The position numbers are program-made. A stretch of 63,414 bases of DNA, filler included, from Bacteriovoracaceae bacterium (GTDB taxonomy: Bacteria > Bdellovibrionota > Bacteriovoracia > Bacteriovoracales > Bacteriovoracaceae): the NCBI GenBank assembly GCA_018649885.1. It is 7 parts of 7 records of this genome, joined end to end, with 100 filler letters (N's around TTAATTAATTAA, not from the genome) between each part and the next. Parts side by side here need not be neighbours in the genome. Positions count along the whole stretch, not along the records: positions 31,922 to 41,202 come from JABIHA010000045.1; 6 more parts are not named here. The stretch is one strand, 5' to 3'. Each line of letters starts with the position of its first letter. Position 1 is the first letter of the stretch. This document shows positions 33,001-39,000 of the stretch, one piece after another.

Positions 33001-36000
33001 TGAAATCAGGGTCGTTTATTAGCCACTCAAGAAACTTAATATTTCCCCTGGCCTCAAGGCGGTCTTCTTTGGTGTGGCTTTTTTGTTCAATAAAAGCAAT
33101 CAGATCATCGAAGACTATTTTTGACATTTGTGGCTCAAGATTCTGATATAGCTCCCTTTTCAACCTATATCCTTCTTTCGAGTAAACAAGATTAACAACA
33201 TCATAAATGGCACGAAACCCATTAACATCACTTACTTCTATATGCTCATACCCTGCGACCGTACTGCCCTCAAAAAATCTGAATATCCGGGCAGGGGTTG
33301 TCCGCCCCTTTAAAATATCCTTCAAAACATAATCCTTAATTAACTGGCGGAGAGGCTCTCCATAAGAATCAACATCTGCAAACAATGGATCATTTTCAAA
33401 GTCAAGAGGGCCGTCAATTTCACCACTTAGAACTTTCCTGTGCTTACGTATGATATGCCCAGAAAACGCATAGGAAAACTTAGTCTGCAAATCATGATGA
33501 TTTTTCATAAACTCCTTTTCCGTTTTCCATTTCCTCAAAACCCCGTAAGACACTCCTGCCGCACGCGCAACCTCTTTAAGAGGCCAATTACGCATCAGGT
33601 AAAACAAGGCGGAATACTTTTGAACGCTGTAGCCAATTTTCTCTCCCTTAATCGTTCCCTTTCTTTGAGCAGGAACAAACTCATCCATTGCCTCAAGCAT
33701 GAACCTATTCAGCAACGTCATCACCCGCTCCTTCTTAACAGGCGCTCCACTCTTCTTTTTTGTCCTGCTCTTGGCTTTAATTTTCTTCTTCACCTTCGCC
33801 CCATTAACCAATCAACAATATTAGTAACAATAATACTAATATGTCACTAATGTCAACGAAAAAGCTGTCTTTAGGCATTTAGGAACCCTTCTGGCAACGC
33901 ACAGAGAAACAGTCTAATTTCGCAAACAAGTGGCAAAATAGTGGCAAACAGAACCATAAAAATAAAAATGGGTTATGACTCGAAGTCATAACCCCTTGTT
34001 TTAAGTGGTGGGCCGTCTCGGGATCGAACCGAGGACCTACTGATTAAGAGTCAGTTACTTCGCATAACTCGCAACAACTCATAACAACACACAACAATAG
34101 ATTCAACAAATTAGATTATATTCATTATTGGTAATTACTACTGAAACTTGTTCATTATGATATGCAAGTGTCACTACGAGTGTCACTATTATTTTTATGC
34201 AGAATATGACAGACCGTTACTCCATCCTTCCTAAATTATCCAGCACTCACCATTAAAGAAGCCGATCCGATCGCTGATCCAGCCTAAAGTTTAATTTTAT
34301 AGGGTCAAACACTCCCAAAGGCTAATAAATCATTACAGAAGAATGGCATGGCACCAATTTAAGGCTATTATTAACTTTTTCACTTTCCCAATATTTGTTA
34401 TATTGCCAGATCTACCAAATGGTTAAGCTAAAGCATTTAACACGTATTATTAAGCTGGCGTTTCATAACCTTGAACTAGCTGAAGAAATATAGACATGAC
34501 TACGGAGCTTGAATTGAATTCATTGGAACTAATAGGGGTTGAGGAAAGTCGCATAAAGAGCATTTCAAAACCCTTTAGAGTTTTAGGCATTGATTTAGGA
34601 ACTACAAATTCAACTATCTCAGAAATTCTATGGAATCCCAATACTCCAAATAACTTTAAATGTGTATGCCTTGAAATTGACCAAGAAACCACATCAGGTG
34701 TTTACAGCAATTATTTAGTCCCCTCAGTCATCGCCATTCATAATAATAAAGAAGTTGTGGGTGAGGGAGCAAAAAGGCTGTTTGGTCGAATGGTAGAATT
34801 CAATCTTACACAATATGAAAATATTTTTCTCGAATGTAAAAATGACATGGGTTGTAGGCGAACCTATCATAAAGCTCCCGATGGATATAGATCACCACCT
34901 GAAATAAGTGGAAAGATACTAAAGTTTCTTACAGAATCTGTTCCCGCAGAAAAAAACTTTCCAACTAAGAAAACTGTAATTACCATTCCCGCCTCATTTC
35001 AAGTTGCCCAAAGAACGGATACTCTAGAAGCAGCAAAAAATGCCGGAATATCAATATCTGGTGGGGAGTTAATTGACGAACCGATTGCCGCATTTATTGA
35101 CTTTTTATTAAATCATCCTGATAAAATTATTAAAAGTCTAAAGCTATCTAGTAAAGTTATTGTTTTCGATTTTGGTGGAGGAACGTGTGACGTAGCAATC
35201 TATCAAGTAATGAAAAACATAAACTCAAAATGTCTTGATTTTTCACCATTAGCTGTATCTCGCTATCATCGTTTAGGTGGAGGAGATATTGACCGAGCAA
35301 TTATTCACGATGTTTTATTACCTCAATTATTGGAGCAAAATAATTTAAAAGCTAGTGATTTAGGGTTTGAAGAAAAGAAGATATTTATAGAGCCCTCGCT
35401 TACTGCGGTCGCTCAAGCCTTAAAAATTGGGATTTCGAATGAAATAAGCCAACTAGAAGGTTTTGATAAGTATGAAGGCAAGGAAAAGAAGGAACTAGTC
35501 AAAATTCAACCAGGAAGACATATTTGCTCTCTCAAAGACCGTGACTTTATTTTGCAGTCCCCATCAATTAATGCTGAACAATTTGAAAAACTTTTAACAC
35601 CATTTTTAGATCAAGATTCTCTTTATGCGAGAGAAACTGAATATAATTTAACCTGTTCTATTTTTGCCCCTATTCAGGATGCCATAGATAGAGCACTCAT
35701 CTCTGCTGATGATATAGATTTTTCACTAATGGTTGGTGGCAGTAGTTTAATTCCTCAGGTTCAAAAAGCTGTTAAAAATTATTTTCCCAGTGCAGATACG
35801 TTAAAACACACGGATAAAGAGTCCTCGCAGTTAGCAATCTCAAAGGGAGCATCCTATCATGCTCTTGCATTAGAACTAAGAGGCAAGGGACTTTTTCAAA
35901 TAGTAGCAAACGATAAAATATCAATAAGAACAGAATCAGGCTCGGTTGATTTAATTCAAAGAGGGGAACAATTGCCCTTTCCAAAATCAAATAAGTGGCG

Positions 36001-39000
36001 TGAAATTTCTTCGCTTGTTGTTCCTGAAATCAACAGAACCAATCTCGTAAAGGTCAATCCCAATACAAATACTCCAGACTTTTCAGACCCAACCAGTATC
36101 ACTAATAGCTCTAATGATATTAGGGTAGAATTAATCGCTGGCATAGATGATGATGAAAGGCTTCTTTTTGAAGAGCTTTGGAGAATTCCAAATTCCGTAA
36201 AAGGAGGTGAACCACTTCTACTCAAATACAGGATGGATGAAAATCAAGTTTTCGAATTTGACTTAAGTATTCATTCGAAAAATGACTTTCCGTCATTTGA
36301 GTGCTCTATTGAAAATCCGCTAACAAATGTCGTAAACCCAAACCAAACTCGAATACGGATTCAGGAAGCCGAGGAGGATCTTAGGGCTGGAAACGTTCCA
36401 AAAAATGAAATTCCAGATAAAGTGGTAGAAATTGCTCGTGATTACAGCGAATTAAATCAAATCGAAAAGGCAATATCCTTTCTTCAAAGAGCACTAAAAA
36501 TGAAGAAAGAACCTGATTCTCATATTTTAAATCTGCTTGGAATGAATTTTGGCGACCTTAATAATTGGGAAAAAGAAGAAAGTTACTATAGGGAGGCTGC
36601 TAGAGTATCTACTAGTCGAGCCCCTCTTTTTAACCTCGCCCTTTCGCAAAAAGATAGAGGAAAATATAAGGATGCCAAGGTAACCATTAATGAAGCCATT
36701 TCAAGAGAGAGAGACGGGCCATCCATTACACTTAAAGCTCAGATATTTAAATCACTTGGCGAAGACAAACCTTACAAGGAAAACTTAAGTGAGGCTCTTG
36801 ATTGTTATGAAGACATGGATAATATGTCCGACTGGGAGCTTGGTTGGTACCTAACAGCCGCAGGACTATCAGGTGATGATGATCTGAAAAAGACTATTAA
36901 AAGTGAGCAGAAGAAAAGGGCCGCTAAATCCAAAGGCTCACTTGAGGGCAGAGGTGCCTTACCTGAAATTTCCTTAAACCTGGATACGAAATGAGTTGGC
37001 TTATACCGAAAAATGAATTGACCCCTGACCAGATTAGGGCCACTGAATTATCACCATCTGAAAATAGAATAATTTCAGGAGGTCCCGGCTCAGGAAAAAC
37101 TCAAATCCTTCTTCATAGAGCAAGGTATCTATTGGATTTATGTGGCAATAAAAATAATTATAAAATAATGGTTTATACAAACGTTTTAAAGGACTACATA
37201 AAATCTGACATTAACTTATTAAACTTACCAGAGGACAATGTCCTTACGTTCGACCACTGGTGCAGACTTTTTTACGAAAGCTACATAGGTGGTAAAATTC
37301 CTTGGAATTCTAAAGCACGGCAACCAAATTTCTCAGCCACCAGAAGTGCCGTTTATGAGTATATAGATAAAAATTTAACCAAACCTATCTATGACTTTAT
37401 TTTAGTTGATGAGGCTCAAGATTTAGAGGAAGAAGTATTTAACTTATTAAATAAAGTTGCTCAGCACGTCACAGTTTGTTTTGACCAAAAACAACAGATC
37501 TATGACACAGGAACTATAGAACAGGATGTTCTCGATGCTTTAGACATAAGAAAAAAAAATATAAATCTTATTGAAGCTTTTCGAGTTTCCCAATACTTAA
37601 TTGTATTAGCAAGTCAGTTTCTCCCTAAAGGAAATGAGAGAGATTTCTTCCTTGACCAAAGAAGAACAGCCAAAATGGCAAAAGAAACTCCTTTACTGTA
37701 TTACGCTGAGAATTTTGATGATGAAAAAGAAAAACTTTACGAAATGGTTAGAGAACGTCAATTAATGAATGACCGAATTGCTATATTATTTCCTCAAAAC
37801 AGACAGGTATTCGGATTTGCACAAGGCTTGAGAGAGATTGGCATAGAAGTTGAGGTTCCTAATAAGCAAAACTCTAAAAACAATGCACACAGAACCCATG
37901 ATTTTACAAGTAATCGACCAAAATTAATGTCCTATCACAGTGCCAAGGGACTCACATTTGACTCAGTATTTTTGCCTCGACTGGTTAAAAGGTCATTTAG
38001 CTGGCTTTCTGATGAGAATGTTGAGAAGCTACTTTTCATGGCAATAACCAGAGCAACAAAATGGGCATATTTCAGTACCGCAGAGGACAATCCATTGGAA
38101 ATATTGTATAAGCTTGAATCATTAGAAGAATCGGGTACGATAAAATTATTAAGGGGAACTGAAGACCGAAGGTCAAAATCTACCTCATCGAGCAAAAAGG
38201 ATGGTGATGATTTGGACTTTTTATAATCATCACCATACTGCAACGAACGAAACACATAGCCGTAAAATTAACACTGCCTCCCCTCCCTTGTTGATTTAAT
38301 TGTTAGCAAAATTTAATTTAAACTACTTTTAATCAAGTAATGCTCCTCAAATCCCCCCCCCAAAAAGCCCCAGAGTGACCTAAATTACCTTACTTTCTAG
38401 TTCTGCATGGGGCTCCCCACACTAACGCACTGAAAATACTACTATTATGATAGATACTTTTTTTCTGGGATTGAGTTCTTCGATGTGGCAATATCAGCAA
38501 CTTCAAAACAAAAAATATTGATGAGGACAAAATGACAAAGGCTGACCTTGTTGAAAAAGTATCTCAGCAGATAAATTTGACAAAAAAACAAACGGAAGTA
38601 GTAGTTAATACTGTATTTCAATCCATAACCGAATCGCTTGAAAATGGTAAAGGTGTAGAAATCAGAGGTTTTGGTAGTTTCCGAATTCGTGAAAGAAATG
38701 CCAGGGTTGGTCGCAACCCTAAATCAGGAGAAGCGGTAGACGTTCCCGCTAAAAAAGTCCCCTTCTTCAAGGCAGGAAAAGAGTTGCGTGAGATTGTGGA
38801 TGAGAAAGGGTTGGAGATTTCATGAGCTACAGAGATACAGCCTCTTTTGGAAAACGTCAGGAATATTCAGTCATCGCTGAACTTTTAAAGCGTGGCTTCG
38901 ATGTCTATATGACTTTAGTAGACGATCAAGGAATAATGTGCTGTGGGCGAACACCCATGAAAACTTTACTTGAGGGAAAACTGATTTGGGATGAAAAAAA

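Follow-up and report, generated by a model that had tools for sequence, protein, structure and literature searches.

What is the function of two overlapping genes, for an Hsp70-like protein and a short UvrD-like helicase, in a Bacteriovoracaceae genome (assembly GCA_018649885.1)? The pair lies in a window of 63,414 nucleotides, the whole stretch of DNA analysed here, on a contig that occupies positions 31922-41202, is bounded by N spacers, and encodes 10 proteins in 9.3 kb. A first-pass annotation proposed that the genes are an undescribed two-gene defence module on a P4-primase island.

The Hsp70-TPR protein

34496-36994, plus strand: Hsp70-TPR gene (ORF list and sequence; Pfam HSP70 and TPR; AlphaFold2; Foldseek)
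34574-35881, plus strand: nucleotide-binding domain (NBD), residues ~27-462 (22-sequence alignment)
35894-36313, plus strand: beta-sandwich domain, residues ~467-606 (secondary structure of the model; Foldseek against lid-less and full-length DnaK)
36344-36928, plus strand: TPR array, residues ~617-811 (11 helices in the model; Pfam TPR_8 and TPR_12)
36929-36991, plus strand: C-terminal tail with an invariant P823 in a G-x-L-P motif

The protein has 832 aa when counted from the first ATG at 34496, and 826 aa, as first annotated, from an in-frame TTG at 34514, the point at which many homologues begin in the alignment. The signature ECKNDMG, also noted earlier, spans residues 113-119 when numbered from the first ATG. 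Pfam matches comprise HSP70 (1e-27), TPR_8 and related families, and TPR_12. The AlphaFold2 model (pLDDT 85, pTM 0.79) has DnaK, BiP, and Hsc70 as top Foldseek matches over 620-730 aligned columns, including the beta domain.

The NBD motifs DLGTTNS, ECKND, DEP, FDFGGGTCD, and GGSS are invariant in the 22-sequence alignment. The NBD shares 27% identity with that of the DnaK of the same genome, and the phosphate-1, phosphate-2, and adenosine motifs align. The actin-like NBD with these motifs places the protein in the Hsp70 superfamily (PF00012), as does, on the fold of the model, the beta-sandwich that follows it. This domain occupies the position of the DnaK substrate-binding domain, and in the alignment the copy of this window carries an insertion of ~22 aa near residues 512-537, where model confidence is low. 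The model and the Pfam matches indicate that the helical lid of Hsp70 is replaced by the TPR array. K658, N679, and N713 of the array are conserved in the conservation table, the two asparagines being spaced 34 residues apart in consecutive TPR helices. The TPR domain has a mean charge of -1.3 and is not net basic. P823 is kept in 41/41 main-clade and 7/7 sister-clade sequences.

The protein is not a DnaK or HscA orthologue: it scores 76-110 bits against NCBIfam cut-offs of 620-1019, and TPR-type helices stand at the lid position. A canonical DnaK is encoded separately in the genome.

The helicase

36991-38226, plus strand: UvrD-like SF1 helicase gene, 411 aa (Pfam; 41-sequence alignment; model; Foldseek)
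38182-38223, plus strand: disordered C-terminal tail of the helicase with an acidic-hydrophobic tip, ...DGDDLDFL (pLDDT of the model)

The helicase matches Pfam UvrD-helicase (6e-13) and UvrD_C (9e-13). Its core motifs GxGKT, DExQD, R, KG, and RA are invariant among 41 aligned sequences (G33, G35, K36, D140, E141, Q143, D144, R198, K319, G320, R354, and A355). Motifs I-VI lie in two RecA-like domains, as in SF1A helicases of the UvrD/PcrA/Rep type. The model (pLDDT 89, pTM 0.87) resembles PcrA, UvrD, and Rep most closely in Foldseek, with TM scores of 0.62-0.73 normalised by the query, and UPF1 ranks lower. Normalised by the target the scores are just 0.39-0.48, the helicase having 411 aa and the targets 620-720 aa. 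A full-size SF1A orthologue with 1B and 2B subdomains was rejected on size, on these TM scores, and on an NCBIfam UvrD score of 40 bits against cut-offs of 965-1144. The protein is a minimal SF1A helicase which, judging by its length and model, lacks the 2B subdomain.

Residues 398-411 have pLDDT values below 50. A tip of this kind behind a disordered linker is common to 43 of 47 helicases, scored as two hydrophobic residues at the end plus at least two acidic residues among the last 8.

Pfam and PADLOC detect no killing domain in either protein, whether nuclease, NADase, pore, or other. Both proteins keep every catalytic motif.

A rerun of PADLOC 2.0 returned the earlier picture, with 0 families for Hsp70-TPR at E<=0.01 and only NERD+UvrD (C3a187, 5e-25) and GajB (2e-17) type models at the top for the helicase. 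Literature searches found no paper on the pair, which supports the term undescribed.

Pairing and distribution

36991-36994, plus strand: ATGA start/stop overlap, predicted translational coupling (sequence)

The Hsp70-TPR gene and the helicase gene share 4 nt, in which the TGA of the one overlaps the ATG of the other, so that the adjacent and overlapping reading frames of the first-pass annotation are real. The ATGA overlap recurs in 23/45 paired loci, and the gap is <=17 nt in 43/45. These loci come from metagenome contigs scanned with a family motif other than, and independent of, ECKNDMG. The helicase lies directly downstream on the same strand at 45 of the 57 assessable loci, which agrees with the earlier count of 21/23. 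By clade, the pairing occurs at 45/49 main-clade loci, four loci being without the helicase, versus 0/8 sister-clade loci. Pairwise identities of the two proteins correlate (r 0.84), and 0/2000 Mantel permutations reach this value. No conserved third gene follows the pair, the 36 next-gene ORFs yielding just 4 small clusters. A fused Hsp70-TPR-helicase protein was not found, in a weak search. These results support a conserved, co-inherited, co-transcribed, and translationally coupled unit. K658, N679, and N713 are equally conserved in the sister clade, where the helicase never occurs, and are therefore not specific for the helicase tail.

The claim of a large family named only Hsp70/DnaK holds as well. 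Among 8000 candidates scored, 5545 are relatives of Hsp70-TPR at E<=1e-3, and the best 120 of these are nearly all ~800 aa, share 45-53% identity, and bear only Hsp70, DnaK, or TPR names. The C-terminal half alone gives 139 clusters at 50% identity (E<=1e-30). Source names among the best matches cover many phyla, and the family occurs almost only in uncultured environmental lineages. The Hsp70-TPR gene is absent at E<=1e-60 from 400 other genomes of the same phylum, 100 of them of the same family. At E<=1e-40 none of 50,697 phage records and none of 72,556 plasmid records matches it, and viral contigs contain just 1 matching stretch (L203), which has a CI-like repressor nearby. Parts of each gene also occur on contigs of RNA libraries. 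Taken together, the distribution supports a patchily spread, horizontally mobile pair.

Gene neighbourhoods across loci

Strong PADLOC matches (E<=1e-50) make up 39/199 proteins beside the pair versus 4/134 beside canonical dnaK (Fisher p 3e-6). Counted per locus, a strong match is present at 24/46 pair loci versus 4/17 dnaK loci, which is borderline (Fisher p 0.05) and involves non-independent loci. The looser threshold of E<=1e-10 does not discriminate, with matches at 33/46 pair loci and 15/17 control loci. The strong matches vary by locus and comprise Hma, RM of types I, IIG, and III, BREX, Druantia III, DrmD, AbiEii, and SoFic. For strong matches only, the counts support the view that genes of restriction, BREX, Druantia, Hma, DISARM-type, and Abi systems are much commoner beside the pair than beside dnaK.

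On balance, the pair is probably, if not firmly, a self-contained and horizontally mobile two-gene conflict module directed against phages or mobile elements, the defence role being read entirely from its neighbourhood.

A rather unlikely alternative is that the pair is an accessory which tunes, loads, or protects a neighbouring restriction-type machine, for example by remodelling stalled complexes on DNA. The machines meant are SNF2/DrmD helicases with a type III or IIG methylase-nuclease, Hma, and DISARM-like arrays. The arrangement at some loci fits this. L115 has the order SNF2(DrmD 2e-203)-Hsp70-TPR-helicase-type III Mod-Res on one strand with small gaps, the same gene families are found on one strand at L117 and L140, and at L090 the pair is flanked by type IIG and DrmD, one on either side. 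SNF2/DrmD/HKD-Snf2/HmaA-type proteins lie <=4 genes from the pair at 7/46 loci, two such proteins are encoded in the putative island of this genome, and neither protein of the pair includes an effector domain. However, the neighbouring systems are not the same at every locus (Hma, IIG, ISP-type, BREX, Druantia, AbiE, and DarTG), 22/46 loci have no strong defence neighbour, and a conserved downstream gene is missing. Pfam and PADLOC also detect no restriction-modification gene on the 9.3-kb contig of the present pair.

The local island

31922-33811, minus strand: primase fragment, HTH_17 protein, and 271-aa protein without a family, beyond the att-like fragment (Pfam)
34005-34056, minus strand: 3' part of tRNA-Lys(CUU), att-like repeat bounding the island (read from sequence)
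38532-38825, plus strand: HU-type DNA-binding protein (Pfam Bac_DNA_binding 5e-34)
39532-40257 and 40298-41047, minus strand: DarG and DarT (Pfam Macro and DarT; PADLOC 4e-47 and 4e-36)

DarTG, a DarT ADP-ribosyltransferase beside a macrodomain DarG, adjoins the pair as previously annotated and is a neighbour outside it. The primase fragment, cut by the contig end, has a Zn ribbon and DUF7146 and matches a PHROGs DNA primase (4e-42). The HTH_17 protein is AlpA-like and has 88 aa. The att-like tRNA fragment stands between these genes and the pair. No full-length tRNA is present on this contig; contig C70 of the same genome carries a full tRNA-Lys(ctt), 94% identical to the fragment over 64 nt, together with an integrase, DrmD (2e-280), HKD+Snf2, and a type IIG fragment. 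The sequences suggest that the pair and DarTG lie inside a putative att-bounded tRNA-Lys island of which C70 is the other end. The earlier placement of the pair on a P4-primase island is thus right only in part, the primase being separated from the pair by the att-like fragment. Of the earlier two-gene defence module, the coupled and co-inherited unit, its patchy spread, and its defence-gene neighbours remain, and the ride on a P4-primase element has to be revised.

Host DnaK remodels some phage and plasmid replication complexes. The pair might accordingly serve the replication, maintenance, or counter-defence of its carrier, with the Hsp70 remodelling a helicase complex at an origin, but this is doubtful. 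The pair is always in mobile, patchily distributed DNA, and here it is adjoined by the att-like tRNA fragment and the HU gene, with the primase and AlpA-like genes beyond the fragment. The only match on a contig filed as viral is near a CI-like repressor, and the helicase tail recalls the acidic tips that serve replisome contacts. Against this reading, phage and plasmid records are without matches and viral contigs have a single one, the neighbours at other loci are defence genes and not replication or transfer genes, and the primase here is not on the att-bounded side where the pair lies.

It is very improbable that the pair is an ordinary cellular chaperone and helicase that act in proteostasis or DNA repair and have no part in genetic conflict. 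For this reading, the superfamilies of both proteins are housekeeping ones, their annotations say no more than Hsp70/DnaK and UvrD-like, and contigs of RNA libraries include parts of both genes. Against it, the gene is missing from all 400 genomes of the phylum compared, the genome has its own DnaK, the scores are far under the NCBIfam DnaK, HscA, and UvrD cut-offs, and the pair has islands and defence genes as its setting.

Proposed mechanism and significance

For the preferred conflict module, a mechanism can be outlined in steps of decreasing support. We infer both immunity and mechanism, and the direction of signalling, the trigger, and the target are guesses. First, Hsp70-TPR would be an ATP-driven switch and sensor, with a complete Hsp70 engine (NBD and beta-sandwich) and a lid turned into a peptide-binding TPR array. 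It would therefore take the role that STAND NTPase-TPR proteins have elsewhere. Second, it would bind the helicase through the tethered acidic-hydrophobic tip. The 2B-less helicase does not have the subdomain that is autoinhibitory in UvrD, Rep, and PcrA and would thus need control in trans. Third, on infection, the beta-sandwich or the TPR array would capture a phage or non-native protein, the ATPase cycle would turn, and the helicase would be freed or loaded. Fourth, the helicase would move along invader DNA and strip proteins or unwind replication intermediates, and either replication would be blocked directly or the DNA would be passed to neighbouring nucleases. This chaperone-turned immune receptor, which would capture a phage-made or non-native protein and, through its ATPase cycle, release or load the 2B-less helicase that it holds by the acidic tail, is a tentative picture that is perhaps correct. 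Passages in three sources provide precedent for Hsp70-like NTPases in predicted conflict systems (PMC11090510, PMC7159879, and bioRxiv 10.64898/2026.10.19.760177).

If the pair is immune, the Hsp70 fold joins the short list of NTPase switches in prokaryotic immunity, and proteostasis machinery is tied directly to infection sensing. This theme is current, because a bacterial NLR-related protein is reported to sense phage through DnaJ (PMC12169576). It would also pose a mechanistic puzzle, namely by what means a helicase that has no nuclease could halt an invader. If the receptor reading is true, this would be the first antiviral system on an Hsp70 core, with a bare motor as effector in place of a nuclease or toxin. 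With its 139 clusters and best matches from many phyla, the family is of a size to be important. Its near confinement to uncultured environmental lineages may explain why it escaped screens that focus on E. coli and Bacillus. The cassette is small, at 3.7 kb, and easy to test.

Comparison with known systems

CoCoNuT: Type III-B and III-C CoCoNuT systems, which are predicted only, encode CnuD, with Hsp70-like NBD and SBD and HEAT-like repeats, and CnuH, an SF1 helicase (PMC11090510). Among the printed cases found, this is the only one that joins an Hsp70-like protein to an SF1 helicase. Both have an Hsp70-like NBD and a substrate-binding-type domain followed by helical repeats, and in both an SF1 helicase gene accompanies this protein in defence loci. 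By the definition given there, CoCoNuT is built on a McrB-type GTPase (CnuB) and a DUF2357 McrC homologue (CnuC), whereas Pfam detects neither family on the contig of the pair. CnuH belongs to a UPF1-like clade with large insertions and CnuD has degenerate Walker-A-like motifs (PMC11090510), whereas the helicase of the pair is closest to PcrA/UvrD/Rep and the ATPase motifs of Hsp70-TPR are invariant. The repeats also differ, being HEAT-like in CnuD and TPR here. On the families missing from the contig and the UvrD-like rather than UPF1-like helicase, the pair is not placed in CoCoNuT type III.

Gabija and PADLOC candidates: Gabija, a defence system of two genes, also includes a UvrD-like helicase, and GajB models match the helicase of the pair. 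These matches are partial, however, and the GajB models have 500-635 positions. GajA is an OLD-family nuclease-ATPase, whereas the partner here is an Hsp70. PADLOC finds no GajA and no nuclease among the 10 contig proteins, and the pair is thus not Gabija. The candidate C3a187 matches residues 25-366 with only its helicase half (positions 212-546 of 559), and the helicase of the pair has no NERD domain. The pair does not qualify as any PADLOC 2.0 system, since all core genes would have to match and Hsp70-TPR matches no family.

STAND/NLR-like sensors: The NTPase-TPR sensors of Avs and related systems join an NTPase switch to a repeat-array sensor, the logic proposed for Hsp70-TPR. A 2026 preprint states that in such tripartite architectures the STAND module can give way to an HSP70-like NTPase. 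In contrast to STAND proteins, Hsp70-TPR has an actin/Hsp70-like rather than a P-loop fold and no fused effector.

Canonical Hsp70 and TPR co-chaperones: Hsp70-TPR shares the NBD, beta-sandwich fold, and ATPase motifs of DnaK, but has TPRs for the helical lid, low NBD identity, and a best score of ~110 bits, far from the NCBIfam cut-offs. Eukaryotic TPR co-chaperones clamp acidic C-terminal tails. A TPR groove that reads a free acidic C-terminus may, as an idea by analogy, also apply to the pair, with the arrangement reversed: the Hsp70 carries the TPR, and its partner, the helicase, carries the tail.

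Gene Layout

The Hsp70-TPR gene and the UvrD-like helicase gene lie on one contig of the window, downstream of a partial tRNA gene.

31922-41202: contig with the pair, flanked by joins of N spacers
34005-34056, minus strand: 3′ 52 nt of tRNA-Lys(CUU), from the anticodon arm to CCA, read from sequence
34496-36994, plus strand: Hsp70-TPR frame, from ATG 34496 to the stop at 36994, 832 aa
36991-38226, plus strand: helicase frame, 411 aa, with its own ATG overlapping the upstream TGA (ATGA)

Position 34514, where the first-pass annotation began the Hsp70-TPR gene, is a TTG in the same frame, and many homologues have their first Met at the aligned position. 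The Hsp70-TPR protein matches Pfam HSP70 (1e-27) and TPR families, and the 411-aa protein matches UvrD-helicase, UvrD_C, and AAA_19. No model in PADLOC 2.0 matches the Hsp70-TPR protein, and the helicase matches generic helicase models only (NERD+UvrD at 5e-25, GajB at 2e-17). Both proteins fall far under the NCBIfam cut-offs for DnaK, HscA, and UvrD. Since the frames, the ATGA overlap, and the Pfam, PADLOC, and NCBIfam results agree, the pair of an Hsp70-TPR protein and a UvrD-like helicase is confirmed as the first-pass annotation had claimed it.

Scans for promoters and terminators found only one feature exceeding shuffled expectation, a hairpin at 33970-33994. Its 11-bp stem is perfect, T-runs are present on both strands (bidirectional terminator-like), and it is located just outside the tRNA fragment. 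Two minus-strand ORFs of the contig have no family in Pfam, NCBIfam, PADLOC, or PHROGs: one of 271 aa (32996-33811), and one of 141 aa (39092-39517) directly downstream of DarG on the same strand.

Hsp70-TPR Protein

An alignment of 22 Hsp70-TPR sequences has a mean column identity of 60%, and the motifs DLGTTNS, ECKND, DEP, FDFGGGTCD, and GGSS are invariant in it. In an alignment with the genome's own DnaK they coincide with its phosphate-1, connect, phosphate-2, and adenosine motifs, and the NBD is 27% identical. K115 would be the counterpart of the DnaK catalytic Lys, a position where the BLASTP alignment differs. The AlphaFold2 model (pLDDT 85, pTM 0.79) comprises three parts.

Residues 27-462: NBD
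Residues 467-606: beta-sandwich
Residues 617-811: eleven TPR-type helices, then a short tail

Foldseek aligns 620-730 columns of this model to DnaK, BiP, and Hsc70, with lid-less constructs among them. Because of the motifs, the model domains, and these alignments, the predicted protein is a whole Hsp70 engine that carries a TPR array in place of the helical lid. A phmmer search with the C-terminal half among 1.84 billion cluster representatives yields 663 matches at E<=1e-3, 260 at 1e-10, and 139 at 1e-30. The long matches all fall at ~450-800 within ~800-aa proteins, and the architecture is thus uniform. K658, N679, and N713 are near-invariant. N679 and N713 are 34 residues apart on consecutive TPR helices and would form a predicted peptide-binding Asn ladder. 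The beta-sandwich also contains an Asn/Thr/Pro-rich insertion of ~22 aa (residues ~512-537, window 36029-36106), which has low model confidence and is missing from 21 aligned homologues.

Helicase and Its C-Terminal Tail

All SF1 motifs, together with W3 and Q14 close to the N-terminus, are invariant in an alignment of 41 helicase sequences. The closest structural neighbours of the helicase model (pLDDT 89, pTM 0.87) are PcrA, UvrD, and Rep, with UPF1, Dna2, and HelD lower. At 411 aa the protein is ~200-300 residues shorter than PcrA, UvrD, and Rep, and its length and model suggest that it lacks 2B, the autoinhibitory subdomain of Rep, UvrD, and PcrA, along with most of 1B.

The last 14 residues of the helicase are disordered in the model. 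Of 47 helicases, 43 finish with two hydrophobic residues and have two or more acidic residues within the final eight positions, and the remaining four have similar acid-plus-aromatic tips. The tail resembles a short linear motif on a tether. It may bind a third party rather than the Hsp70-TPR protein. SSB and phage replisome proteins make use of C-terminal tips of this acidic-hydrophobic kind, and sliding-clamp motifs are similar. A complex prediction of Hsp70-TPR residues 465-832 (without the NBD) with the full helicase, run as alignments and without controls, scored 0.00 against a mark of 0.32, a result that speaks neither for nor against binding. A TPR groove specific for the helicase tail is disfavoured, because the groove residues are equally conserved in the helicase-less sister clade of Hsp70-TPR relatives, and because the TPR domain is not basic and charge complementarity is lacking. 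The helicase-less Hsp70-TPR proteins of loci L104 and L118 themselves end in an acidic-hydrophobic tip like that of the helicase.

Conservation of the Pair

The adjacency had been claimed to recur in relatives, and it does so in a scan with a different motif. A back-translated family-specific motif, differing from ECKNDMG, was found in at least 120 stretches of metagenome contigs, 80 of them with flanks, and in 1 further stretch of viral contigs. Among the 121 motif-bearing frames listed, 119 are relatives of the Hsp70-TPR protein at 30-62% identity. To be assessable, a locus had to include the gene's 3′ end and 300 nt of sequence downstream; 64 loci fell short of this, six of which nevertheless contain all or part of a helicase. 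Among the matches listed, a helicase orthologue (31-62% identity) is next on the same strand in 45 of 57 assessable loci. The two genes share the ATGA overlap in 23 of the 45 paired loci, and the gap is <=17 nt in 43. The pairing was counted by tblastn, and the helicase frames in L087, L140, and L159 open far upstream.

The helicase is absent from 12 loci. Eight of these have an Hsp70-TPR protein <=34% identical to that of the window, and the seven full-length ones form the monophyletic sister clade (support 1.0). The other four are scattered within the main clade, which is thus paired in 45 of 49 loci. Pfam revealed no consistent replacement partner in the 12 loci (WYL, HsdM, ParE, MFS, an Fe-S protein, and a sulfatase-modifying enzyme). 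In two loci of the sister clade, homologous Cys-rich ORFs of 70 or 82 aa overlap the stop by 4 nt (L092:10632-10841, plus strand; L083:886-1131, minus strand), and may represent an alternative small partner of the sister-clade Hsp70-TPR.

The pairwise identities of the Hsp70-TPR proteins and the helicases correlate with r 0.84, a value reached in 0 of 2000 permutations, and kinship alone would give some correlation. No fused Hsp70-TPR-helicase was found at E<=1e-30 in a weak search among proteins of 721-2055 aa, nor was a conserved third gene found beside the pair.

Defence Neighbourhoods

The neighbour set comprises up to four genes on each side of the pair, with 203 proteins from 47 loci. 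Pfam was applied to the first 105 neighbours, and PADLOC to 199 proteins from 46 loci, with four proteins of L203 left out. The control consists of 134 neighbours of canonical dnaK from 17 loci, drawn from a generic-Hsp70-motif scan of genome contigs (80 loci, all canonical dnaK, 23-32% identity). PADLOC at E<=1e-10 is unspecific, with a match in 33/46 cassette loci and 15/17 dnaK loci, and a strict threshold is therefore needed. At this level, housekeeping genes beside dnaK match, for example, the models mad2 (a PrmA-like methyltransferase), mad3/mad8 (ABC ATPases), and PD-T4-6 (a kinase). At E<=1e-50, 39/199 proteins beside the cassette have a match versus 4/134 beside dnaK (Fisher p 3e-6). 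By locus the figures are 24/46 and 4/17 (Fisher p 0.05, the loci being non-independent). The strong matches beside the cassette are bona fide systems that vary from locus to locus.

Strong PADLOC matches beside the cassette
HmaB/HmaC: L086, L120, L123, L151
Type IIG: L090, L107, L108, L129, L132, L135, L143, L145
DrmD with type III Mod/Res: L115, L117
DruE/DruH: L126
AbiEii: L121
Type I methylase and SoFic: L139
PDC-S37-like giant helicase-nucleases: L108, L149, L153, L160

A further strong PADLOC match is BrxC in L136, where the BrxA and BrxB matches are weaker. In L093, L108, L146, L149, and L153, the gene that follows the cassette helicase on its strand encodes a large AAA_11/AAA_12 helicase. 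These proteins match PDC-S37- or Mko-like PADLOC models, the L108 copy adds an MTES_1575 nuclease domain, and they may be a recurrent companion in one subclade. In L115 (447-10371), L117, and L140, an SNF2 protein, the Hsp70-TPR protein, the helicase, and a type III methylase are encoded on one strand with small gaps. The SNF2 protein is DrmD-like in L115 and L117, and an HKD+Snf2 protein, with type III Mod, takes the place of DrmD in L140. L115 adds restriction genes. The SNF2, cassette, and type III genes may constitute a larger composite operon.

The tRNA-Lys Island and Distribution

The tRNA-Lys(CUU) fragment lies 440 nt upstream of the Hsp70-TPR start, and no full tRNA was found on the contig 31922-41202. 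Another contig of the genome, C70, has a complete tRNA-Lys(ctt) with a tyrosine integrase after it, and this tRNA copy is 94% identical to the fragment region over 64 nt. Islands integrated at tRNA genes usually occupy the side upstream of the partial tRNA copy. By this geometry, the Hsp70-TPR, helicase, HU, and DarG-DarT genes lie on the island side, which leaves out the primase, AlpA-like, and 271-aa genes. The first-pass annotation had placed the pair on a P4-primase island next to DarT-DarG; the pair does share the island side with DarG-DarT, but the primase falls beyond the partial tRNA-Lys copy. The island end on C70 encodes a ParB_N protein, a DEDDh exonuclease, DrmD (2e-280), Endonuclease I, an Mrr_N protein, HKD+Snf2, and an N-terminal ORF of a type IIG enzyme. 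Judging from the repeat alone, a single tRNA-Lys defence island probably has one end on each of the two contigs. A predicted pPIWI-associated nuclease (pP_pnuc_1, 9e-23; L205:2290-3015, minus strand) lies on C70 just outside the island, 5′ of the tRNA-Lys gene.

The genome has one copy of the Hsp70-TPR gene, which was not found in 400 other genomes of the phylum searched at E<=1e-60, 100 of them from the same family. There was no match in 72,556 plasmids or 50,697 phage records at E<=1e-40. The source names of homologues include Omnitrophota, Acidobacteriota, Verrucomicrobiia, Desulfobacteraceae, Chloroflexota, Thermodesulfovibrio, Desulfotomaculum, and others. Marine and seawater metagenomes contain near-identical DNA, with at least half of the sampled words present in 14 runs, one of which is possibly the source. 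In four RNA libraries from three studies, short contigs match parts of both genes at 99-100% (4 runs, shares 0.06-0.17, with uncovered parts of the stretch uninformative). This is a weak hint that the cassette is transcribed, because DNA can contaminate RNA libraries.

Proposed Working and Comparison with Known Systems

The pair is a real, conserved, mobile, and unnamed two-gene cassette enriched in defence islands, whose genes are coupled and co-inherited and whose catalytic motifs are intact. Its neighbourhood points to a probable immune function. In the mechanism proposed, the Hsp70-TPR protein would act as an ATP-driven switch and sensor, and the helicase would be the motor that it controls. 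The tethered helicase tail would serve as the handle, with the TPR groove or the beta-sandwich cleft as the putative socket.

No description of a pair of Hsp70-TPR and UvrD-like helicase was found in the full-text literature searched, subscription journals and supplements excepted, or by term look-up in a 2025 modularity-network preprint. Two Aravind-group papers describe HSP70 modules in GTPase-centred conflict systems (PMC7159879, bioRxiv 10.64898/2026.10.19.760177), and according to the latter an HSP70-like NTPase can replace STAND modules. The relevant passages of both papers do not contain this pair. A 2025 preprint reports DnaK-like domains fused to protease-effector modules. Gabija has only the UvrD-like partner in common with the cassette, and GajA was not found on this contig. 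The nearest printed case is the predicted CnuD and CnuH of CoCoNuT type III-B/C, which depends on McrBC homologues (PMC11090510). CoCoNuT is described there with a UPF1-like helicase and degenerate ATPase motifs, and on these features the present cassette falls outside it.
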